Shown here in pieces: positions 4,498-54,888 of a stretch of 64,000 bases of DNA (positions are counted from its first letter, which is position 1; every line of letters begins with the position of its first letter). Below the pieces are notes generated by a model that did not search any database, was not told the DNA's origin, and was given only the letters and a program-made list of their open reading frames with translations. The DNA lies in NCBI GenBank assembly GCA_964387845.1, contig CAYLXA010000008.1, positions 1 through 64,000 of the forward strand, written 5' to 3'. This DNA comes from an uncultured bacterium (GTDB lineage: Bacteria; Omnitrophota; Omnitrophia; Omnitrophales; Abzuiibacteriaceae). The translations under genes were made by a program, and so were the position numbers.

Positions 4498-6604
4498 AAC
4501 CGGCACAGCCCCGGAAACCGAACGCATCCGTGCGTTTTTGATTAATCTGTCGATCCTCGTTTTCATGATCCTGTGGTCTTTTTGGATTTACCGCTACGGC
4601 ATTTACGCGTTTCCGCGGCAGGATCATTTTTCTTTCATGTTTGACCGGTCTCTTTTTCAAAACGATTGGGATTATTTTTGGCATGTCATTTCATTTTCGA
4701 AAACCCGGACCACATTTCCGGGAGATTATTATCTTTTCCGCCCTGCTACACACGGAATTCTGGCGCTCATCGATATTTTTTTCCGAAGTGATTTATATAC
4801 GGCAGGAAGAATCAGTATTTTTTGGCATGGCATCACCGCGTTTGTCCTGTATTTATTCACATCGAAATTTTCAGGCAGGATGATCGGATTTATTTTGGCG
4901 TTTGTATTCGCAACGCAATATCCGGGCCTCGAGATGGTCATTTGGCGCCATGTGAGCCCGTACATGCTCGGGCTGTGTTTTTTTACATGCGGCCTTTTGA
5001 TGATTCCGAAAATAACGGAATCTCACCGGCTTACCGCAATAGCGGCGCTGCTATTTTTAATTTCCGGATTCTTTTTTGAAAACATTATTGTTGTCATGGC
5101 AATAGCGTTCTTGATTTTCCTAATTCTAGGAACCCGCACTCAAGAAAATGCGCTTCGGAATTTCAGTTTTCAAATCATCAAAATCGCCGCTTTAGTGATT
5201 TTGGTTTATTCCGCACTTTATATTTTCGAATATTTAATGCGCCCTCCGCCGTCGTTTTTGGGCCCTGCCGATAGAAATGCGGCAACTTTTACATGGCTTG
5301 ATACGGTTTATGGTTTGTGTACGATTTCAGGCCTTTTGTTTACGGCATTTTTATTTCCGCACAAGGTTGATTTATTCTATGACTCCGAATGGTACAGGGC
5401 TTGGTGGGAATTTTTTGAAACCGGGAGTAATTTTTTCTATGGCTGGTTAGGTGTTTTCTTGGGGATTCTGTTAACCATTACATTTGTAAAAGGTGCTTTC
5501 TTTTTATTCCGCAAGCAGCAAAAAGCGATTGCCGCTATTTTTGTGTTTGTTTTTCTTTATTTCGGTGCCGTGGCGGGCGGTTTGTCGCTGGGGCGCGCAA
5601 GTTTGCGATCGGTCAGTTATATGACAAACGCGACTTATTATTATTACATGACCGGCTTTCTGCTGACGATGATCGCGGCTCTTCTCATTTTTATTTCAAA
5701 GAAATCGGAAATAGTTAAACACTTTTCGAACGGCGTTAAACAAATATTGTGGTTTCTGCTGATCTTATTTTCCACGCATCAAGTTACTTTAAGCTATGAG
5801 AGAATCCAGACAGTTTTGGGCAGCCGCTATGGTTTTGACAAGGGAGTCGCTGAAGCGACATCGGAAGTGGCAAAACGGATCCGGCAGAACGAGTTATTTT
5901 GTTATGGAGGAGCAATCGATCCATTTTTGGGAAATTACTTATTGAATGAACTTCTTTACCGAGAATCATGCATGGATAAGCAAGGCGTTCCGCTTTATGC
6001 GGTTACGGGCCCAAATCAGATTTTTTGGTTAATCAAATTCAAAGAGTCCGATGTCGGGCCTGTTTCGCTTCAGCCGGTCGAGTTGCTGGAAAACGGGCAG
6101 AAAGTAATGCTGAGCACGCGAGATTACAACGCGGAGTCCTTAGACGTGACGATGTATCCGCCCTTTAACGGCGGATTGGTAGTGGCCTATAAAAATCCGG
6201 GCAATTTTTTGCTTCTGCTCGTGAAAGAAAACACGTTTTATGCCCATCAGATGAGGGGCGGGAGATTGTCTCCGCCTTTTGTAACCCATGAGTTGAAGCC
6301 AGCCCCGCAGTATGACATTTCAATCAAGAGGGTTGGAACGGATTACGCCGTGTTCTATAATGAGAACGTTATCACCCGGCTTGAAGCCGGTTCTGGCTGG
6401 ATCGGGAAAATCGGTTTGATTGATTACGGAAGCGATTCAGGCAGACAGGCTTTTTCTGAATTAAAAGTTTCGGCTACGCCGTTACTAGGCCGAGGTTCGG
6501 ACAATATAGTGCCTGTATTCCGGTTGAGATTTCCGACCCTGCAGAATTTTCTGAAGCAAGAGCAGGGCTGGGCGGTTGCATCCAGCAGCAGAGCTGATTA
6601 TTGA
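4490..6604 (+). CDS. Large polytopic membrane protein with a C-terminal extracytoplasmic domain; function unknown, possibly a glycosyltransferase partner of the upstream TMTC-like gene
   Basis: About 11 predicted TM helices in the first 430 aa, followed by a soluble approximately 270-aa tail. The start was moved to the in-frame ATG at 4490, which overlaps the upstream stop (ATGAATAA). The track ORF begins at 4448. Confidence 0.55.
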   Translation: MNKTGTAPETERIRAFLINLSILVFMILWSFWIYRYGIYAFPRQDHFSFMFDRSLFQNDWDYFWHVISFSKTRTTFPGDYYLFRPATHGILALIDIFFRSDLYTAGRISIFWHGITAFVLYLFTSKFSGRMIGFILAFVFATQYPGLEMVIWRHVSPYMLGLCFFTCGLLMIPKITESHRLTAIAALLFLISGFFFENIIVVMAIAFLIFLILGTRTQENALRNFSFQIIKIAALVILVYSALYIFEYLMRPPPSFLGPADRNAATFTWLDTVYGLCTISGLLFTAFLFPHKVDLFYDSEWYRAWWEFFETGSNFFYGWLGVFLGILLTITFVKGAFFLFRKQQKAIAAIFVFVFLYFGAVAGGLSLGRASLRSVSYMTNATYYYYMTGFLLTMIAALLIFISKKSEIVKHFSNGVKQILWFLLILFSTHQVTLSYERIQTVLGSRYGFDKGVAEATSEVAKRIRQNELFCYGGAIDPFLGNYLLNELLYRESCMDKQGVPLYAVTGPNQIFWLIKFKESDVGPVSLQPVELLENGQKVMLSTRDYNAESLDVTMYPPFNGGLVVAYKNPGNFLLLLVKENTFYAHQMRGGRLSPPFVTHELKPAPQYDISIKRVGTDYAVFYNENVITRLEAGSGWIGKIGLIDYGSDSGRQAFSELKVSATPLLGRGSDNIVPVFRLRFPTLQNFLKQEQGWAVASSSRADY

Positions 6605-29369: not shown

Positions 29370-29428
29370 GTCATCCTGAACGAAGTGAAGGATCTAAGAC
29401 CTAGATTCTTCGCTCCGCTCAGAATGAC
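29370..29428. repeat. MITE-like hairpin repeat, empty copy A (arms GTCATCCTGAACGAAGTGAAGGATCT / AGATTCTTCGCTCCGCTCAGAATGAC)
   Basis: Imperfect 26-bp inverted repeat with a 7-nt loop, between convergent genes. The same arms recur at 49640-49718 and flank the GIY-YIG gene at 54509-54867. Confidence 0.6.
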
Positions 29429-35002: not shown

Positions 35003-35031
35003 TTGACAAGTACCTGTCATAGTGTTAAATT
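35003..35031 (+). promoter_or_regulatory. Candidate sigma70 promoter (TTGACA-17-TAAATT with an upstream TG) followed by the 7-bp inverted repeat ATATATG-N9-CATATAT
   Basis: TTGACA at 35003-35008. 17-nt spacer. TAAATT at 35026-35031. The palindrome at 35040-35062 sits at about +2 to +25. Confidence 0.35.
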
Positions 35032-35518
35032 AACCGTAGATATATGAAATTAATCCATATATCCGGTATTTCGGCAGATAGATAAATTAAACAGTGACTT
35101 GCAGTGCCGAAATCAGTACAATGCAGGTCGCAATTCAAATGGCACTTGATGAGCCGCTCGAATTGCCGGCAGAATTAAGCGACTCTCTGGGCTGGATAGA
35201 GAGGGATTTAACATGAAAACCAATAGCTTAAAGTTCTGCTACTCCCGCTTAGACCCGACTCAAAAATCTTCTCTTTCCGCCGTCTTTTCCGATTTGTTCT
35301 CAGGCATCCAAAAATTCAACACCGTTTATAAACGCCAGGGCGAAGGTGTGATTTCAATCGAAGCGCTCAGGACACCGCGCCACCCGCGCGGTGCCAGACA
35401 AACGAGCGGCCACCCGCCGCTTAACCAACTGGCACCGAGCCGTATCGGTCGAATCCGCGCAGCTAGTCTGCAGCGTCCTCTCTGGCCTTCTGGAGCCTGT
35501 CTGCCGGCGGGTGACGGA

Positions 35519-35557
35519 AGCCGGGGAGTTCGTCCCGGCGTTTACCTTTTTTGATTT
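35519..35557 (+). terminator. Candidate intrinsic terminator (GCCGGG-gagttcgt-CCCGGC followed by TTTACCTTTTTTGATTT)
   Basis: GC stem plus T-tract at the end of the GC-rich transcribed region, immediately before the conserved leader. Confidence 0.4.
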
Positions 35558-35560
35558 AAC

Positions 35561-35653
35561 ATCCGGCAGCGAACAACGAACACTTGCGCAAATGCGCGAG
35601 TGCCATCTCGCGGGGCTTAAGGATAGCCCCGTCTCGATAGGAGGAGAATCAAA
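35561..35653 (+). promoter_or_regulatory. Conserved structured 5' leader, copy 1, upstream of the secreted-protein gene
   Basis: It shares ATCCGGCrG..ACGAACACT..GCGAGTGCCATCTC..hairpin..TCTCGATAGGAGGAG with the leader at 36219-36312. Both variable hairpins change by compensatory substitutions. Confidence 0.45.
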
Positions 35654-36172
35654 ATGAGAATGATAAACCTCATATTATTGGTACTAGGGATATTGACGAT
35701 TTCCGGACCAGCATTTGCTCAAAAGCCATTAGCTGATTATGGCAACGTACCTCAAAATGCGGTGAGTGGAGTTGCGGACGCAGAACCGCCTTTTATTTTG
35801 GAGCTCGACGCGGGAGGCAATCAGTTTCGGGGAGGCAGGCAAATCGTGGTTAACCTTGATTTCACGAATACGTCTTCCTCAGCTAGGGTAGACAACATTG
35901 AGTTTGCTTTCGGTATCACGCCTGCCAGCGAACCTGCGAATCCTGTTTTTCAGGATTACGGCATTGTTGATAGTGCCTTTTCACGCGGCGGAAAATATAC
36001 GATCTATACCGCAAAAGTCGTACTGACAACCGGCGATTACGATGTTTGGAGTATAGTCACTTCGACCGATCAATTTGGCAATTATTCGAACGGCTGGACA
36101 AAAAAACGAATTGTGGTAACTGGCGGTCCGATACCTGTTCAATCGACGGATGTTGCGGTAGGTAAGTCATAA
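35654..36172 (+). CDS. Small secreted protein (172 aa), function unknown
   Basis: GGAGGA SD. Signal peptide MRMINLILLVLGILTISGPAFAQ. First gene of the tandem secreted-protein array. Confidence 0.6.
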   Translation: MRMINLILLVLGILTISGPAFAQKPLADYGNVPQNAVSGVADAEPPFILELDAGGNQFRGGRQIVVNLDFTNTSSSARVDNIEFAFGITPASEPANPVFQDYGIVDSAFSRGGKYTIYTAKVVLTTGDYDVWSIVTSTDQFGNYSNGWTKKRIVVTGGPIPVQSTDVAVGKS

Positions 36173-36218
36173 AAATAAAGTTTAAACCAACAATCGGGAC
36201 TGTCCCGGATTCAAAACA

Positions 36219-36312
36219 ATCCGGCGGAGAAAGACGAACACTCACACATGATGTGCGAGTGCCATCTCTCGAGACTCAAAGAAGTCTCGTATCGATAGAG
36301 GAGGAATAAAAA
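36219..36312 (+). promoter_or_regulatory. Conserved structured 5' leader, copy 2
   Basis: See copy 1. Its hairpins CACATgATGTG and CGAGACtcaaagaaGTCTCG replace GCGCAaaTGCGC and CGGGGcttaaggataGCCCCG. Confidence 0.45.
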
Positions 36313-38190
36313 GTGAATACTATGAAAGTAAATACTGCCGTAGCGTGGTTAACTTTGTATCTAGGAAATACCAAACTTGTAAAAAATAGTCGTTGCCTAG
36401 TGATTGCACTTGCATTGATGGGTTTTCCACCGCTGTTATTTGCAGAAACTCCAACTTTTGATTGGCTCCGAACCGTTCAAAATTTACAGGATGCACATAC
36501 TTCAACTGCTCATAAAGTCGCAGTTGACTCTGAGGGGAATGTTATCGTGATCGGACACTTCCATGGAACGATGAATTTCAATCCCGGACAAAATCCGCCT
36601 GTTTTGTTAACTTCCACCAATAGCTTCTATAATATTTTTATAACCAAGTACCGGCAAAACGGAGACCATGTTTGGACAAAAGCGATAGGTGGAGATTATT
36701 CTACTCTCTCTTTCTCGTCTTTTTTGGGGGTTGATCCCTACAGTCATCTTGTCATCGATCAAGACAATAACATTATTATTGCAGGCTACTTTGTAGGTTC
36801 GTCCGATTTCGATCCTTCTGAAGACACTGACATTCATGAGTCTAAGGGAGGGCGTGATATTTTTATTACAAAACTTTCGAATGATGGCTCCTATCAATAT
36901 ACTGTTACGATGGGCGGCGAAAGAGACGACATCCCTCTTGACCTTGCTCTTGACGCAACAGGTAGTTTGGTGCTCACCGGATTTTTTACTTCACCAGCTG
37001 TCGATTTTGATCCTACTTATGAAGGAACCGATACTCATCTGCTTCAAAGCAGTGTGGGCGGTTTTATAACGAAACTTGGCAACAATGGATCGTATGAATG
37101 GACACATACCTTTGACGGGTTCCCGAACGGTTTGATGGCGGGGAAAAGTGTGGCGATTAATCGTTCGAGAGAAATTTATGCTATGGGCATATTCCAAGGT
37201 CAGGTTGATTTTGATCCTACTGAAAACGAAGATATCCGCACCTCTAACGGCGAGCGGGATATTTACCTGACCAAATTTTCACCCAATGGAGCTTATATTT
37301 CCACGTTGATTTTTGGTGGCTCTCTGCGAGAACGGCCGACGGCAGTTCGAATCGATTCCCAGGATAACCTATATTTAACAGGCTCTTTTAATGACCGTGT
37401 TGATTTTGATCCAACAGCGGGCGAAGATTTTCACGAAGCCGTGAATATATGCGCTCCCAACGTCTGCGGTGATATTTTCATAACGAAAGTCACGGCTGAT
37501 CATTCTTACCAATGGACTAAAACCATAGGAGCGCCGGTATTGAATCGTCCTTACTATATGCACTTGGATTCAGAGGGCAATGTTTATTTGACCGGTAGTT
37601 TTGGTGGGACAATTGATTTTGATCCAACCAACGGAACTGATTTTCACACCGCTATCGCCTCTACGGACATTTATGCAGTCAAAATTTATACAGACGGAAG
37701 TTATGGATGGGCAGTCAATATGGGGTATGATTCAGGCCCGTTTGGCAGCGCTCCCACGAATCATCATCTAGGATCCGGTTTGGCAACGGACAGAGATCAA
37801 AATGCAATCTTGGTTGGCTTTTTCCGTTATCAGGTTGATTTTGACCCTGGCCCAGGAATTGTTTGGGGTTTAACTCGCACTTATTTTGAATCTGCTTTTA
37901 TTCTTCAGTTAAGACCACGATATTCCTTGAATATTAATGTGGTCGGAAGAGGAGCAGTTGTCAGACAGCCCGATCTCTCAACTTATGGAAGAGGAGAAGC
38001 AGTGTTGTTAAGAGCGGTTCGGGAAAATGCAAGATGGGATTTTGAGCGTTGGAGTGGAGATTTAATGGGGGCTCGGAATCCGGTGATTATTGGCTTCAAT
38101 CGAGATACTCAAATCACCGCTTGGTTTACTGCTAGAGGACCTGAGCCGCTTGCGATAGATTTTGTACCAAATGATGATAAAAATCAGTGA
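36313..38190 (+). CDS. Secreted SBBP beta-propeller-repeat protein with a C-terminal InlB-B-repeat-like domain
   Basis: GTG start aligned with the gene-1 ATG. At least six about 45-aa repeats ending ...DFDPT..G.D.....G..DIFITKL..DGSY.WT...GG. C-terminal G.G.V....YG.G..V.L.A....FERWSGDL. Confidence 0.7.
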   Translation: MNTMKVNTAVAWLTLYLGNTKLVKNSRCLVIALALMGFPPLLFAETPTFDWLRTVQNLQDAHTSTAHKVAVDSEGNVIVIGHFHGTMNFNPGQNPPVLLTSTNSFYNIFITKYRQNGDHVWTKAIGGDYSTLSFSSFLGVDPYSHLVIDQDNNIIIAGYFVGSSDFDPSEDTDIHESKGGRDIFITKLSNDGSYQYTVTMGGERDDIPLDLALDATGSLVLTGFFTSPAVDFDPTYEGTDTHLLQSSVGGFITKLGNNGSYEWTHTFDGFPNGLMAGKSVAINRSREIYAMGIFQGQVDFDPTENEDIRTSNGERDIYLTKFSPNGAYISTLIFGGSLRERPTAVRIDSQDNLYLTGSFNDRVDFDPTAGEDFHEAVNICAPNVCGDIFITKVTADHSYQWTKTIGAPVLNRPYYMHLDSEGNVYLTGSFGGTIDFDPTNGTDFHTAIASTDIYAVKIYTDGSYGWAVNMGYDSGPFGSAPTNHHLGSGLATDRDQNAILVGFFRYQVDFDPGPGIVWGLTRTYFESAFILQLRPRYSLNINVVGRGAVVRQPDLSTYGRGEAVLLRAVRENARWDFERWSGDLMGARNPVIIGFNRDTQITAWFTARGPEPLAIDFVPNDDKNQ

Positions 38191-38193
38191 GTA

Positions 38194-38245
38194 ATTGGGG
38201 TCAGTTCTTGAAAATTGAACGGCATTCAAAATTCAAGAATCGACC
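38194..38245 (+). terminator. Long hairpin (about 21-bp stem) after the SBBP gene; terminator-like, no U-tract
   Basis: GGGGTCAGTTCTTGAAAATTGAA-cggcat-TCAAAATTCAAGAATCGACC. A paralogous hairpin is at 39788-39840. Confidence 0.4.
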
Positions 38246-38303
38246 TGAATAATCCGGCAAAATAAAAACAATTGCGGCAGCGGGAAAATAGGAGGAATAA
38301 AAA

Positions 38304-39770
38304 ATGAAAACGATAAAAACGATATTAATGTTAATGATAGCAACTTTTTCAATAGCAGGAGCGGCATTTGCAGACGGTTCAATTTCACCGTCGCCGGGTC
38401 TGACCGCGGCGTATGTGAATATTCCGCGTTCAAGCTGGCTGTTTGCATATTCTTCACCAAACGACGGAGCACAAGCACAACTTGTTGGAGACATTGTCCG
38501 CGTGACCCCGCCGGGCGGTAATTTTATTTATTCCATTAGCGGCGGATGGACGTTCGATAATCCGGATACTCCGGAAGTGGAAACGTACGACATGAGTTAC
38601 CTTACGTCACTCGTAGTCGGTCTTAAAGGTGGAATTTATACCACCTATGGGCCGGTTTTGGGGATGAGTTTGGAAGATAGCAGTGGAGCGTCTTCGGGCG
38701 TTTCATTGTTGTCTGTGAGCGACTCAACGGAGCAATATTGGTCGGTTCCAACAACCAATTTTTCCGCTGTTGACCTAACACGTGTCAAAAAAGTGACTTT
38801 TGGCGTTGGCTACACCTATAACGCTTCGGGAACAAATTTTGACATTCGCACTGTCCCGCCATCCTCAAATCCTTGTTTGATCAAAGTCCATGCAGGCGAG
38901 TCCATCCAAGCGGCTATTAATCAAGCCTCTGGCGATGGCTGCATGATTTGGGTTAGCGAAGGTACTTACGCAGAAAATATCACGATTGGGCAAGGCCGCA
39001 CTGACCTGAAAAATCTGACCATTTCCGGTGCCGGCATGGAAAAAACGGTGATTCAAGGCAGCGTAGTTGTTGATTTTACAGATCAAGATGGAAATCAAGT
39101 AGACGGTGGCGTGACCAGCATTCAGGATTTGAAAATCACGAACGCGAATTGGGGCGTGACGGTTGTGAATCAGAATGTAGTACTTGATCGCTTAAGATTG
39201 ACAGGGAATCAAGAGGGGGTTGTTGTCACGAGCGTTCGGGGCAATGTTGTTGTAGAAGGAAGCCCTAACGTGACAATTCAGCGCTCAGTAATCGATCATA
39301 ATACAGGCATCGGCGCTACGTTTTATCACGCCAACGAATTGAAGGCGTTTTTGGTCAATAACACCATTGTTGATAATAGTTTTGTGGGCGTGTTTGCACA
39401 ATTACCAGGACCGCAAACCCATCATCTAACTTTAATCAACAATATCATTTCGAGAAACTTCATCGGAATGGAAAATCATTCCGCGCCGAACGCCATAGTC
39501 AAGACTTTGTATGAATACAATGATAACTATGGAAATACCGCTGTTGATATACAAGGTGTTTTTAATTTTGTAGGAGATCAAAGCACCAATTTAAACGTTG
39601 ATCCGTTGTTTGTAAATCCAGCAGCCGGAAATTATCACTTACGGAGAGCATCGCCTATGATCAATGCGGGTGACCCGGTTTCACCTCGCGATCCGGATGG
39701 AAGCCGTTCGGATATCGGTGCGCTTCCGTTTTTTGGGAGGGTGATGAGTGTTGGATCAATCGAAGTTTAG
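38304..39770 (+). CDS. Secreted right-handed parallel beta-helix (PbH1/pectate-lyase-fold) protein
   Basis: Signal peptide MKTIKTILMLMIATFSIAGAAFA. Beta-helix rungs (NNTIVDNSFVGVFAQ, TLINNIISRNFIGMEN). C-terminal DPLFVNPAAGNYHLRRASPMINAGDP is typical of this family. RBS context GGAGGAATAAAAA. Confidence 0.7.
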   Translation: MKTIKTILMLMIATFSIAGAAFADGSISPSPGLTAAYVNIPRSSWLFAYSSPNDGAQAQLVGDIVRVTPPGGNFIYSISGGWTFDNPDTPEVETYDMSYLTSLVVGLKGGIYTTYGPVLGMSLEDSSGASSGVSLLSVSDSTEQYWSVPTTNFSAVDLTRVKKVTFGVGYTYNASGTNFDIRTVPPSSNPCLIKVHAGESIQAAINQASGDGCMIWVSEGTYAENITIGQGRTDLKNLTISGAGMEKTVIQGSVVVDFTDQDGNQVDGGVTSIQDLKITNANWGVTVVNQNVVLDRLRLTGNQEGVVVTSVRGNVVVEGSPNVTIQRSVIDHNTGIGATFYHANELKAFLVNNTIVDNSFVGVFAQLPGPQTHHLTLINNIISRNFIGMENHSAPNAIVKTLYEYNDNYGNTAVDIQGVFNFVGDQSTNLNVDPLFVNPAAGNYHLRRASPMINAGDPVSPRDPDGSRSDIGALPFFGRVMSVGSIEV

Positions 39771-39787
39771 AGCGCGTTAATGAATCA

Positions 39788-39840
39788 TTGGGGTCAGTTC
39801 TTGAATTTTGAAGACCGTTCAATTTTCAAGAACCGACCCC
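39788..39840 (+). terminator. Paralogous long hairpin after the beta-helix gene
   Basis: GGGGTCAGTTCTTGAATTTTGAA-gaccgt-TCAATTTTCAAGAACCGACCCC. The internal A/T block is swapped between arms relative to the copy at 38194. Confidence 0.4.
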
Positions 39841-39876
39841 AGTAACATTTAGAAGAAAGGTTAAAGGATATTGATT

Positions 39877-49639: not shown

Positions 49640-49718
49640 GTCATCCTGAACGAAGTGAAGGATCTAAGTTCGTAGACCCTTCGCTCTGCTCAGGGTGACA
49701 GGAGTTGCTCAGGATGAC
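49640..49718. repeat. MITE-like hairpin repeat, empty copy B
   Basis: The left arm GTCATCCTGAACGAAGTGAAGGATCT is identical to copy A. The right arm CCCTTCGCTCTGCTCAGGGTGAC is followed by a partial tandem reiteration GTTGCTCAGGATGAC. Confidence 0.6.
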
Positions 49719-53645: not shown

Positions 53646-54518
53646 ATGACTGCCAAACTTTTAGAAGGAAAAATCATAGCCGAAAAGCTGCAGAAGAAAA
53701 TTGCAGCAGAGGTGCGCGATCTGACGTCCAAAACAAAGCAAACGCCCAAAATGGTGGCAATCCGGATTAATGAAGACCAAGCCTCAGAGCTTTATTTGAA
53801 ATCACAGCGGAAAGCCGCGGAGCTTGCCGGCATGAAGCATGAAACGATTACGATTTTGGGTGCGACCGAAAGACAATTAATTCAGGCCATCGAAAAAGCC
53901 AATAAAGACGTATCCATTCATGGCATCATGATTCAAATGCCGCTTCCTCAGGATTTTCATCTCGAAAATATTTTGGATTCCATCGATCACAAGAAAGACA
54001 TCGAAGGCGTCACGAGTTTTAATTTAGGGCAATTGGTTCTCAAGAAAGACAAATTGGTTCCGTGCACGGCGCTTTCCTGCATCACTTTGATTGAAGAGAC
54101 AGGCGAGAAGCTGCGCGGCAAAGAAGCTGTGATCGTGGGCTCCAGCAAAGTCGTTGGGCGCCCGGTTTCGCTTTTACTTTTAGACCGGATGGCAACCGCG
54201 ACGGTTTGTCATATTGCGACTTCAGAAGCCGGGAAGCTTGAATCGCATGTGAAGCGTGCGGATATTTTGGTGGTGGCGGTCGGAAAAGAAAATGTAATTC
54301 CCGGGAAATGGGTCAAAGAAGGCGCGATTGTGATTGATGTCGGGATTAACCGTGTGAACGGAAAAACCGTGGGCGATGTGGAATTTGAAGAAGCAAAATC
54401 CAGAGCCAAATTCATTACGCCGGTCCCGGGCGGCGTGGGCCCAATGACGGTGACGATTTTAATGCACAATTTGGTAACGGCGTACAGGTGGCAGACAGAG
54501 AATGCGTCGTCATTCTGA
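53646..54518 (+). CDS. folD: Bifunctional 5,10-methylene-THF dehydrogenase / methenyl-THF cyclohydrolase FolD
   Basis: MTAKLLEGK..., ...PVPGGVGPMTVTILMHNLV. The last three codons and the stop (SSF*) are supplied by the left arm of the hairpin repeat. Confidence 0.9.
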   Translation: MTAKLLEGKIIAEKLQKKIAAEVRDLTSKTKQTPKMVAIRINEDQASELYLKSQRKAAELAGMKHETITILGATERQLIQAIEKANKDVSIHGIMIQMPLPQDFHLENILDSIDHKKDIEGVTSFNLGQLVLKKDKLVPCTALSCITLIEETGEKLRGKEAVIVGSSKVVGRPVSLLLLDRMATATVCHIATSEAGKLESHVKRADILVVAVGKENVIPGKWVKEGAIVIDVGINRVNGKTVGDVEFEEAKSRAKFITPVPGGVGPMTVTILMHNLVTAYRWQTENASSF

Positions 54519-54888
54519 GCGTAGCGAAGAATCTCTGTTTCGATGAAGAAGGGTTACGTTTATTTGCTTGCGAACAAAGTTAACACTGTAATTTATATCG
54601 GAGTTACAAGCAATCTTGCAAAAAGAATTTGGGAACATAAAAAGAAGCTGGTAGAAGGATTTACAAAGAAATATAACGTAGACAAACTAGTTTATTATGA
54701 AATTTTCGAGTTAGTTGTTGATGCAATAAAAAGAGAAAAGCAAATTAAAGGTTGGGTCAGAAAAAAGAAAGTGGACTTAGTCGAATCACTTAACCCTAAT
54801 TGGAACGATCTATACAAGAACTTAAACGAATAAGATGTACGAGATCCTTCGCTTCGCTCAGGATGACGGGCGAAGGGTTCAGGATGAC
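54509..54888. mobile_element. Putative small mobile cassette: a GIY-YIG nuclease ORF embedded between the two 26-bp arms (terminal inverted repeats) of the same hairpin-repeat family
   Basis: The left arm GTCATTCTGAGCGTAGCGAAGAATCT (54509-54534) is the complement of the right arm AGATCCTTCGCTTCGCTCAGGATGAC (54842-54867; 23/26 match), which is followed by the partial reiteration GGGCGAAGGGTTCAGGATGAC. The interior is about 33% GC against about 48% in the flanks. Confidence 0.5.
54543..54833 (+). CDS. GIY-YIG domain nuclease (UPF0213-type, 96 aa)
   Basis: GYVYLL...IYIGVT.NL..R...H is the GIY-YIG motif. It fills the space between the two repeat arms with 8-nt gaps on both sides. AT-rich. Confidence 0.8.
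   Translation: MKKGYVYLLANKVNTVIYIGVTSNLAKRIWEHKKKLVEGFTKKYNVDKLVYYEIFELVVDAIKREKQIKGWVRKKKVDLVESLNPNWNDLYKNLNE

Follow-up and report, generated by a model that had tools for sequence, protein, structure and literature searches.

Two adjacent leaders in a cluster of secreted-protein genes carry a stem-loop module of about 60 nt, which is best explained as a lineage-specific insert present in two copies inside short 'basic' leaders, and which would thus form a two-member family of propagated leaders, possibly affecting mRNA stability or translation. We put the probability of this reading at roughly one half. The module is not a conserved ligand-sensing riboswitch. Such an element would be expected to show an aptamer that is conserved across lineages ahead of functionally related genes, with several covarying helices around a conserved core, and what is found are two simple hairpins that are missing from five relatives and from a third leader (W3) of the window, as the whole 64-kb stretch of DNA analysed is called here.

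Anatomy of the two leaders

The first copy of the leader (W1; 35561..35653, plus strand) begins with ATCCGGCAG and ends directly before the ATG of a gene for a secreted protein of 172 aa, and the second (W2; 36219..36312, plus strand) begins with ATCCGGCGG and ends directly before the GTG of a 625-aa SBBP gene; the covariance model built from the two matches them with 110.9 and 112.9 bits, respectively. W2 is non-coding, and W1 falls within a listed ORF (35391..35657) whose TGA overlaps the ATG of the 172-aa gene. Both copies contain ATCCGGCRG-N-GAAMRACGAACACT (35561-35584 in W1 and 36219-36242 in W2; two matches, against 0.00 expected in shuffles) and GCGAGTGCCATCTC (at 35596 and 36255). The earlier note, which drew attention to these leaders, was right that the ATCCGGC block, TCGATAG, a GGAGG-type SD and the start codon are common to the two, but TCTCGATAG, which it also listed as shared, is confined to W1, W2 having TATCGATAG at that place. 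Aligned end to end, the copies span 98 columns with 22 substitutions and 3 gap columns, so that 73 of the 95 ungapped columns are identical (77%); by column count, identity is 40/49 (82%) in columns 1-50 and 41/51 (80%) in columns 29-81.

The insert itself consists, in this order, of ACGAACACU, hairpin 1, GCCAUCUC, hairpin 2 and UCGAUAG, its stem-loops lying 8-10 nt upstream of each SD. The linker GCCAUCUC and both flanks are fully conserved between W1 and W2, whereas the stems have diverged, and 13 of about 62 module positions differ in all. The genes that follow are not paralogous, as had been supposed: no Pfam or NCBIfam family was found for the 172-aa product, and its best BLASTP match to the 625-aa SBBP protein is not significant (E = 3.3).

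Structure of the hairpins

In W1, hairpin 1 (35581..35602, plus strand) is formed by CACUUGCGC-AAAU-GCGCGAGUG, with 9 bp including one U.G pair (-15.3 kcal/mol, z -5.0). Hairpin 2 of the same copy (35610..35632, plus strand; -15.3 kcal/mol) has six counted pairs, CGGGGC/GCCCCG (35611-35616 with 35626-35631), which the predicted fold extends by G35610.U35632 and one loop-side pair, so that the 7-nt loop UAAGGAU remains. In W2, hairpin 1 (36239..36261, plus strand) reads CACUC-A-CACA-UGA-UGUG-C-GAGUG with one A x C mismatch, and its stability is -10.8 kcal/mol on the plus strand and -16.2 on the minus strand, where it makes a perfect 12-bp stem. Hairpin 2 of W2 (36270..36289, plus strand; -9.1 kcal/mol) again has six counted pairs, CGAGAC/GUCUCG (36270-36275 with 36284-36289), and an extra loop-side U-A pair in the predicted fold, with a loop of 6 nt. 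Folding z-scores are -2.9 and -2.6 for the leaders of about 103 nt, and range from -2.4 to -5.0 for single hairpins.

Two hairpins per leader had been proposed, and both copies fold in this way; hairpin 1 as drawn (GCGCA-aa-TGCGC in one copy, CACAT-g-ATGTG in the other), however, cannot form in RNA, because the loops would be of 2 and 1 nt. The actual stem is longer and takes in the conserved flanks (35581-35602 and 36239-36261). Both hairpins are plain stem-loops without a conserved junction, internal loop or pseudoknot, and on the plus strand neither is followed by the T-run of an intrinsic terminator. Their summed stability is -50.5 kcal/mol on the plus strand versus -53.3 on the minus strand. 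Since they are equally stable on the antisense strand, they bear no G.U signature of selection on the sense RNA, and this strand symmetry makes a DNA-level origin or role equally compatible with them.

Changes between the copies

Of the 15 stem pairs, 10 are the same in W1 and W2. Both sides differ in 3 (one in hairpin 1 and two in hairpin 2, all from G-C to A-U), a single side differs in 1 (U.G to C-G), and 1 is broken in W2 (G-C to A x C). These counts use the correct register of helix 2, which in the searched covariance model is one column out. The claim that both stems change by compensatory substitution was thus overstated, although the three doubly changed pairs do count in its favour: in a simulation of neutral transitions, at least 3 compensated pairs with at most 1 broken occur with P about 0.01, a value obtained from two sequences only. 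The stems have evolved at least as fast as the rest of the module (8/30 stem positions substituted, against 4/21 unpaired positions), and of the 500 shuffles of a control, 59 reach the same covariation; three double changes in two sequences cannot, by their number, beat 1 in 8. Pair-preserving changes are in moderate excess over random transitions. As for the selection on RNA structure that had been deduced from them, pairing is indeed preserved beyond neutral expectation, but the shuffles that match it and the strand-symmetric stability tell against this deduction, and that the stems of W1 and W2 drift by paired changes bears on the weight that covariation between two sequences can be given.

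Absence of the module from related leaders

Every gene of the secreted-protein cluster is preceded by a basic leader of about 35-55 nt, which is ordered as WTSCGGCRG, a short A-rich stretch, GGAGG, 7-9 nt and the start codon. ATCCGGCRG, on the 5' side, and the distance between SD and start codon, on the 3' side, recur ahead of every cluster gene in the window and in five relatives; both belong to this cluster-wide short leader and lie outside the hairpin module. The third leader of the window, W3 (38252..38306, plus strand), which precedes a 488-aa beta-helix gene, has the short basic form, with ATCCGGCAA, TTGCGGCAGCG and GGAGGAATAAAAAATG and without the module, and is matched by the covariance model at its ends only (21.3 bits). 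The same holds for leaders of three relatives (L046 611-647, L054 5500-5537 and L047 11623-11661): as in W3, only model positions 1-20 and about 80-98 are matched, the central 59-63 positions being deleted. Altogether, the central segment of about 60 nt was not found in nine of nine comparable leaders, one in the window and eight in relatives. In the orthologous leaders of the first gene (L045, L046, L047 and L054), a terminator hairpin is followed by (A/G)T(C/T)CGGCA and the sequence up to the SD, without the module, and the corresponding leader of L097 has this same layout ahead of a different gene. The TTCCGGCGGAGAAAGA of L054 nearly matches the ATCCGGCGGAGAAAGA of W2 up to the exact point at which the module starts.

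As the module is missing from five related genomes, it is read as a young local duplication and not as a conserved riboswitch. The SBBP genes of the window and L046 share 90% amino acid identity and 85% third-position identity, and the divergence of the module copies is not younger than the split of these genes. The sole ortholog of W2, L046b, could have deleted the module, which bears on gain versus loss at W2.

Searches for further copies gave the same picture. The earlier note had advised a covariance-model search for homologues, and the model built from W1 and W2 found no third copy in the 64-kb window, which is part of a contig of 108,269 bp, or in the relatives' loci; the rest of the source genome may contain more. 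Relatives are carried by the Logan runs SRR15237816, SRR22077680, SRR6489006 and ERR1149363. Scanning the GTDB species-representative genomes (596 Gb; a collection without the source genome) for GAACACT-N8-18-AGTGCCATCTC returned 44 loci, all attributable to chance and none extending along the leader, and a 19-base pattern had 39 matches in JGI metagenomes, again all by chance; both scans demand exact blocks and hence miss diverged copies. No closer SBBP orthologs with a W2-type leader were found, every homolog being less than 40% identical; one candidate source of such an ortholog (P0057, locus L095) was discarded, its genome being unrelated and of 63% GC. With Rfam 15, the window as a whole gave no match at the gathering threshold, and with E relaxed to 10, positions 35400-36400 gave only three noise matches of 12.5-16.5 bits, against cut-offs of 45-50, with none from the thermometer families. 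The earlier note saw no match of these leaders to a riboswitch consensus, and Rfam agrees. A conserved class of cis-regulatory RNA is not supported, in view of the lack of a family, the absence from the five relatives and W3 and the chance-only matches of the exact patterns in the collections, and the comparative data come close to the bare recent segmental duplication that the note had set against its own proposal.

Several more specific candidates were also rejected. Homology of the module to a 60-nt insertion that is specific to the window and lies upstream is not significant. By eye, the spacing of the conserved blocks or of ATCCGGC misfits a sigma-54/ECF promoter (TGGCAC-N5-TTGC) on either strand. 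A CsrA site could be seen in the W1 loop AAGGAUA, but the W2 counterpart AAAGAA has no GGA; and GUGCCAU can pair with AUGGCAC of the upstream leader, a complementarity of 7 nt that chance alone would yield in about one of four cases.

Transcription of the cluster and its long upstream leader

A sigma-70-type promoter, TTGACA-17-TTAAAT with a TG (35003..35031, plus strand), is conserved in all relatives covering the site, and no other promoter-like site ahead of the cluster is conserved in this way; no sigma-70-like site was found between 35552 and 35654 or ahead of 36313. Downstream of it lies a long conserved leader, whose 3' domain (35329..35544, plus strand) is a three-way junction closed by UAAACGCC.GGGCGAA / UUCGUCC.GGCGUUUA; the window-only insertion of 60 nt, itself with two hairpins (about 35373-35432), sits at the tip of the left arm. 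Four relatives share this domain at about 97% identity. A terminator-like hairpin, GCCGGGGAGUUCGUCCCGGC followed by GUUUACCUUUUUU, spans 35520..35552 on the plus strand, and since its arms are shared with the closing helix and the right arm of that domain, only one of the two folds can form at a time. The ORF that passes through the domain, which has an apparent 1-nt frame break in 35430-35450, has no Pfam or NCBIfam match, and a phmmer search of 1.84 billion representatives returned only two true relatives for it, the rest being repeat-protein noise.

The structured leader of about 520 nt that would start at the 35003-35031 promoter and end in the terminator is a stronger regulatory candidate than the module. 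A bolder proposal would place the whole cluster under new RNA elements: within the leader of about 520 nt, the three-way-junction domain of about 165-230 nt (35329-35544), in competition with the terminator, would represent a new riboswitch- or attenuator-like class governing the secreted proteins, and the module would be a newly evolved addition giving two cistrons extra control of translation or stability, perhaps through a protein that also recognises WTSCGGCRG. In this full form the proposal is unlikely.

According to the favoured reading, a lineage-specific insert copied between leaders, the module would have arisen or inserted in this lineage and would have reached its matching places in the two neighbouring leaders either through non-allelic recombination or conversion between them, or through two insertions. 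The cluster genes would most likely be transcribed from the sigma-70 promoter at 35003-35031, through the leader of about 520 nt and the terminator, and the module would lie in intercistronic mRNA as two stable stem-loops and would most likely act post-transcriptionally, as an RNase barrier (a 5' stabiliser of the downstream cistron) and/or by damping translation initiation.

Comparison with known elements

The closest parallels are the putative mobile promoters, defined as upstream regions that can be aligned at 80% identity or above for more than 50 nt while their CDSs do not align (PMC3488235). Like W1 and W2, these comprise some 50-100 nt of homologous DNA that precedes non-homologous genes of a single genome and stops just short of the start codon (Matus-Garcia et al. 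2012, PMC3488235). Over 4000 families were reported, of which 68% have two members, the commonest size and that of the W1/W2 pair, and most are without a known mechanism (PMC3488235). The downstream CDSs do not align here either, as the BLASTP comparison of the 172-aa and 625-aa products (best E = 3.3) indicates. Unlike putative mobile promoters, however, the copies are adjacent in one probable operon instead of dispersed, no promoter is evident in the module, and their identity is borderline for the 80% cut-off (77% overall, 80-82% in 50-nt sub-windows).

Stem-loops that stabilise mRNA are known from the 5' hairpins of E. coli ompA and from REP stem-loops between cistrons, e.g., malE-malF. 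The module resembles them in consisting of stable GC-rich hairpins between cistrons or just before the SD, with a sequence that is free to change as long as the stem is kept, and differs from them in being present in only one lineage.

Alternative explanations

A functionless palindromic insertion is a real, if doubtful, possibility. The two copies would then be a drifting duplicate, and template switching within inverted repeats during replication, a documented process (PMC8794818), would have created the hairpins and kept them symmetrical, altering both arms at once and so mimicking compensation. This would account for hairpins that form equally well or better on the antisense strand, for imperfections without a sense-strand signature (U.G in W1, and in W2 an A x C that is G.U on the other strand), for double changes that all go from G-C to A-U and for a module that five relatives with the same genes do without; moreover, the same genome has the second private insertion of 60 nt with two hairpins, 200 nt upstream. 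It fits less well with the identical place and orientation of both copies relative to the SD, with the full conservation of GCCAUCUC, ACGAACACU and UCGAUAG in spite of the divergence of the stems, and with the retention of two separate hairpins (p about 0.01 under independent substitutions). A DNA-level element, either a small mobile palindromic repeat of the REP/BIME or MITE type that targets this leader by preference or two palindromic operators for a dimeric regulator, is a highly unlikely alternative. Such repeats are likewise short, lineage-specific, GC-rich, strand-symmetric intergenic palindromes with 'empty' sites in relatives, relative to which the module looks inserted, and other palindromic repeats occur in the region (38188-38252 and 39781-39845). 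REP/BIME-type repeats, though, occur in many copies and often in both orientations, whereas the 64-kb window has two copies of the module, both on the plus strand and at one precise leader position, with hairpins that are mutually unlike, and the exact-block scans of the genome and metagenome collections gave no true matches elsewhere. At the ends of the module, ACGAACACU and UCGAUAG do not form inverted repeats, and when the junctions are read against the empty sites L046b and L054b, no clean duplication of the target site is seen. The inner palindromes differ in sequence between the copies and the conserved outer arms are 11 nt apart in one copy and 12 in the other, differences that argue against a single protein recognising both.

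A sensing cis-regulatory RNA such as the earlier note had favoured, whether a thermosensor or a protein- or ligand-binding leader, is decidedly unlikely. In this scheme, pairing of CCAUCUC with GAGG/AGAGG around hairpin 2 would hide the SD until a signal opens it. Hairpin 2 does lie directly upstream of the SD, the stems are preserved, and in both minimum-free-energy folds the conserved CAUCUC block, or a neighbouring CUC, pairs with the SD, which recalls the SD-adjacent hairpin and the CU-rich stretch of SD-sequestering thermometers and translational riboswitch platforms (ROSE, fourU). Against this stands an occlusion no stronger than with shuffled upstream sequence: the mean unpaired probability of the SD is 0.33 and 0.16, values equalled or undercut by 28% and 7% of shuffles (p = 0.28 and 0.07). 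The pairing registers also differ between W1 and W2, the two plain hairpins have no conserved junction, internal loop or pseudoknot and fit no family consensus, Rfam with its thermometer families gives no match, exact-block scans of the large genome and metagenome collections found no other copies, and all relatives regulate the same genes without the module. Finally, an in-frame ATG within hairpin 1 opens a short upstream ORF, M(R/C)ECHL(A/S)(G/R)LK..., which could couple or gate translation of the gene. Its ATG and first 10 codons are aligned in both copies, and in W1 it has 21 codons and ends in a TGA that overlaps the start of the gene (ATGA); the version in W2 comprises 16 codons and stops at the TAG within CGATAG. 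This explanation is barely credible, as no SD precedes an ATG that is buried in hairpin 1, the peptides differ in frame and length past a 1-nt indel, 3 of the 5 differing codons are non-synonymous, and stem pairing accounts for the same substitutions.

Implications

The module is confined to a single uncultured lineage, whose relatives manage the same genes without it, so that by itself it matters little. Homologous leaders before unrelated genes are common in bacterial genomes, and the pair described here offers a clean, small case of a stem-loop module appearing in a pre-existing short leader and being copied to a neighbouring gene. For the real regulation of the secreted-protein cluster, the upstream structured leader and the cluster-wide WTSCGGCRG are the better candidates.

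Two copies of a hairpin-bearing leader

The leader of the 172-aa gene (W1; plus strand, from 35561, ATCCGGCAG, to the ATG at 35654) and that of the 625-aa SBBP gene (W2; plus strand, from 36219, ATCCGGCGG, to the GTG at 36313) are two copies of one leader, each with two hairpins, as the earlier note had held. Aligned from end to end, they fill 98 columns, of which 3 contain a gap and 22 a substitution, so that 73 of 95 positions are identical (the "mean column identity" of 83-87% returned by the alignment tool is a separate measure). Folded over about 103 nt, W1 and W2 reach z = -2.9 and -2.6 against shuffles, and the single hairpins folded alone have energies well below those of shuffled sequences. 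A degenerate 24-nt block at the 5' end occurs exactly twice in the window (0.00 expected), exact matches to GCGAGTGCCATCTC lie at 35596 and 36255, and the linker between the hairpins, GCCAUCUC, is fully conserved. Several details of the initial description had to be corrected. TCTCGATAG, taken as common to both copies, is replaced by TATCGATAG in W2, and hairpin 1 had been drawn with loops of 2 nt and 1 nt, which are impossible in RNA; its actual stem, with conserved CACU and AGUG flanks, occupies 35581-35602 in W1 and 36239-36261 in W2 (plus strand). Nor are the downstream genes paralogues, as their proteins are unrelated (BLASTP E = 3.3): one is a 172-aa secreted protein for which no family was found, the other a 625-aa SBBP beta-propeller protein. 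A uORF, M(R/C)ECHL..., is an unlikely reading, as it has no Shine-Dalgarno (SD) site and loses its frame after an indel; a single operator does not fit, as the inner palindromes differ and the spacing differs by 1 nt.

Strength of the covariation

Of the 15 stem pairs counted in their correct registers between W1 and W2, 10 are invariant. Both bases of three others have changed with pairing intact, each time from G-C to A-U; hairpin 2 holds two of these and hairpin 1 the third. Of the remaining two, one has a single-sided change (U.G to C-G) and the other no longer pairs in W2 (A x C). The compensatory changes claimed for both stems are more modest than described. A shuffle control equals the observed covariation in 59 of 500 trials, which is a ceiling, since two sequences with three such pairs give 1 in 8. 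Under our own neutral model, with 12 random transitions across 51 ungapped module columns, the probability of at least three compensated pairs is 0.016, and that of at least three with at most one broken pair is 0.009; the stems are thus kept beyond what independent drift would give, on one pairwise comparison only. The further claim of selection on RNA structure is weakened, because the antisense hairpins are equally stable (summed energies of -50.5 kcal/mol on the plus strand versus -53.3 kcal/mol on the minus strand, where alone W2 hairpin 1 forms a perfect 12-bp stem) and because template switching in inverted repeats can generate paired changes from one mutational event (PMC8794818).

Leaders of related genomes and origin of the module

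Five related, distinct genomes were reached through homologues of neighbouring genes: loci L045 and L046 via the 172-aa protein, to which their homologues are 68% and 62% identical; L047 (equal to L048 over the compared region) and L054 via the upstream 75-aa STI1-like protein; and L097 via an ORF in the upstream leader. At the W1 position, the roughly 60-nt two-hairpin module is absent in all five, where the same terminator-like hairpin is followed by (A/G)T(C/T)CGGCA and then the SD within 36-80 nt; in L097, the gene behind this leader is another one. One gene further on, the leaders (suffix b) likewise run without the module, as ATCCGGCGGGGAAAGAATAAACGAGGAACAAAAAATG in L046b, TTCCGGCGGAGAAAGAATTAAAAAGGGAAAATAAAATG in L054b, ATGCGGCAGCGATAAATTGGAGGATAAAATG in L045b and GTGCGGCAGCGCAAAAAC...GGAGAATGAAAATG in L047b, and so does W3, the leader of the 488-aa beta-helix gene in the window (38252-38306, ATCCGGCAA...TTGCGGCAGCGGGAAAATAGGAGGAATAAAAAATG). 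A covariance model of W1 and W2 matches W3, L046b, L054b and L047b at both model ends only, with the central 59-63 positions deleted in each, so that what had been described as one conserved leader consists of two separate parts. One is a short leader common to the cluster, made up of the motif WTSCGGCRG, an A-rich segment, the SD and the start codon; the other is the module, private to W1 and W2 of this genome. The wider search for homologues that had been proposed yielded no further copy of the module: none was found in the window or the relatives' loci by searches including the covariance model, and scans with exact two-block patterns, over JGI metagenomes and 596 Gb of species-representative genomes, gave nothing beyond chance matches.

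Nine module-less against two module-bearing leaders favour a gain of the module in this lineage, followed by copying. Past ATCCGGCA, W1 is nearer to the b-type leaders (GCAGCGAACA...) than to its own orthologs (GCAAATTCAATG...), which suggests that it was overwritten by a W2-like leader. The SBBP gene, absent from L045 and L047, shares 90% amino acid and 85% third-position identity with L046 (window 36313-36850, L046 645-1169), against 62% and 51% for the 172-aa gene (window 35654-36169, L046 86-589); this closeness indicates that the SBBP gene and its leader were shared recently, through exchange or a mosaic history. For W2, the module may instead have been deleted in L046b, given that its two copies have diverged at 13 of about 62 positions and so do not clearly postdate the separation of the window from L046, although the count of leaders speaks for gain. 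The leader position itself seems prone to length change, since L054, in the leader of its homologue of the 172-aa gene, has a perfect 18-nt tandem duplication (4871-4906, CACGTGAAGAACATGATT twice) at the place that the module takes in the window.

Comparison with known elements and possible function

Putative mobile promoters are upstream regions whose alignment exceeds 50 nt with at least 80% identity while their coding sequences do not align, and more than 4000 such families, 68% of them pairs, have been reported (PMC3488235). W1 and W2 resemble them in that their downstream coding sequences do not align, and are borderline in identity (77% overall, 80-82% in 50-nt sub-windows). The module does not qualify as a MITE (its junctions show neither a clean target duplication nor terminal inverted repeats), as an intrinsic terminator or as a member of any Rfam family. 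As to REP-type repeats, the 64 kb of the window hold two copies, both on the plus strand. The module is a real but ordinary, young, lineage-private stem-loop insert, duplicated in two gene leaders.

In its way of working, the module would be closest to intercistronic or 5'-UTR stem-loops. Its predicted stem-loops, both stable, end 8-10 nt 5' of each SD, and the stems drift through paired changes between the copies. They probably lie within a polycistronic mRNA, where they might block nucleases or stabilise the downstream cistron from its 5' side or, alternatively, dampen initiation. In their minimum-free-energy folds, W1 and W2 both have the SD base-paired, though in different registers, and its unpaired probability is 0.33 and 0.16; shuffling the upstream sequence gives equal or lower values in 28% and 7% of cases, so that SD sequestration by the module is possible but unsupported.

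The cluster-wide motif and other repeats

WTSCGGCRG (variants ATCCGGCAG, ATCCGGCGG, TTGCGGCAGCG and others) occurs at 35561, 36219, 38252 and 38276 in the window, 1322 in L045, 41 and 611 in L046, 11623 in L047, and 4863 and 5500 in L054, usually after a hairpin that trails the previous stop codon. It lies 25-55 nt 5' of the start codon in module-less cluster leaders of several genomes, and is shifted by the module to about 93 nt in W1 and W2. The window contains 11 occurrences of ATCCGGCRR (3.8 expected). Candidate roles of WTSCGGCRG are a promoter discriminator, a processing site or a protein-binding site.

Two other repeats were observed. A long palindrome of about 65 nt (GGGGTCAGTTCTTGAA..TTCAAGAAYCGACC) is present in two copies, 78% identical (38188-38252 and 39781-39845), directly 3' of the stop codons of the consecutive 625-aa SBBP and 488-aa beta-helix genes; they may terminate transcription or stabilise mRNA 3' ends. 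The 29-nt repeat GTCATCCTGAACGAAGTGAAGGATCTAAG (29370-29398, 49640-49668 and 54509-54537) is spread across 25 kb, with two copies identical and the third at 76%.

A conserved promoter and a putative structured upstream leader

A scan returned three promoter-like sites, with none between 35552 and 35654 or ahead of 36313. The only one that both precedes the cluster and recurs in relatives is the sigma-70 promoter TTGACA-17-TTAAAT with TG at 35003-35031, conserved in each of the four that cover the region. It is followed by a non-annotated stretch of about 520 nt and a terminator-like hairpin with T-run (35520-35552), 9 nt past which W1 begins. By sequence homology, promoter and upstream leader together correspond to 35003-35556 in the window, 218-712 in L045, 10378-11001 in L047, 4321-4857 in L054 and 32-530 in L097. 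The last 165 nt or so are about 97% identical among the latter four, while flanks and neighbouring genes are saturated. The 3' 165-230 nt are predicted to fold, with high stability, into a three-way junction (z = -5.4 in L045, -5.3 in the window), closed by UAAACGCC.GGGCGAA / UUCGUCC.GGCGUUUA. Its closing helix and right arm use both arms of the terminator hairpin, making the two folds mutually exclusive, and about ten G.U pairs make it strand-specific. The left arm carries at its tip a 60-nt insertion private to the window (about 35373-35432), which adds two hairpins and leaves the rest of the fold undisturbed. The upstream leader matches no Rfam family.

An ORF with conserved SD and ATG crosses the structured domain in every relative (L045 437-747; L047 10648-11034; L054 4469-4924; L097 177-596), with an N-terminal part of variable length but kept frame and a stop at or close to the start of the next gene. 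In the window (35213-35554 and 35391-35657), a 1-nt indel that follows the in-frame 60-nt insertion interrupts the ORF from the ATG at 35213. No protein family was found for the product, which has only two relatives among 1.84 billion representatives. Substitutions by codon position in the conserved part (5/3/5 among relatives, 7/7/6 between the window and L045) show no periodicity, so that this part may be constrained both as RNA and as coding sequence, or the ORF may be fortuitous.

In our reading, the upstream stretch is a structured 5' leader whose ORF may be translated. It is a candidate for an undescribed cis-regulatory RNA or attenuator of the secreted-protein cluster, and it, rather than the hairpin module, is the more credible regulatory element of this cluster.
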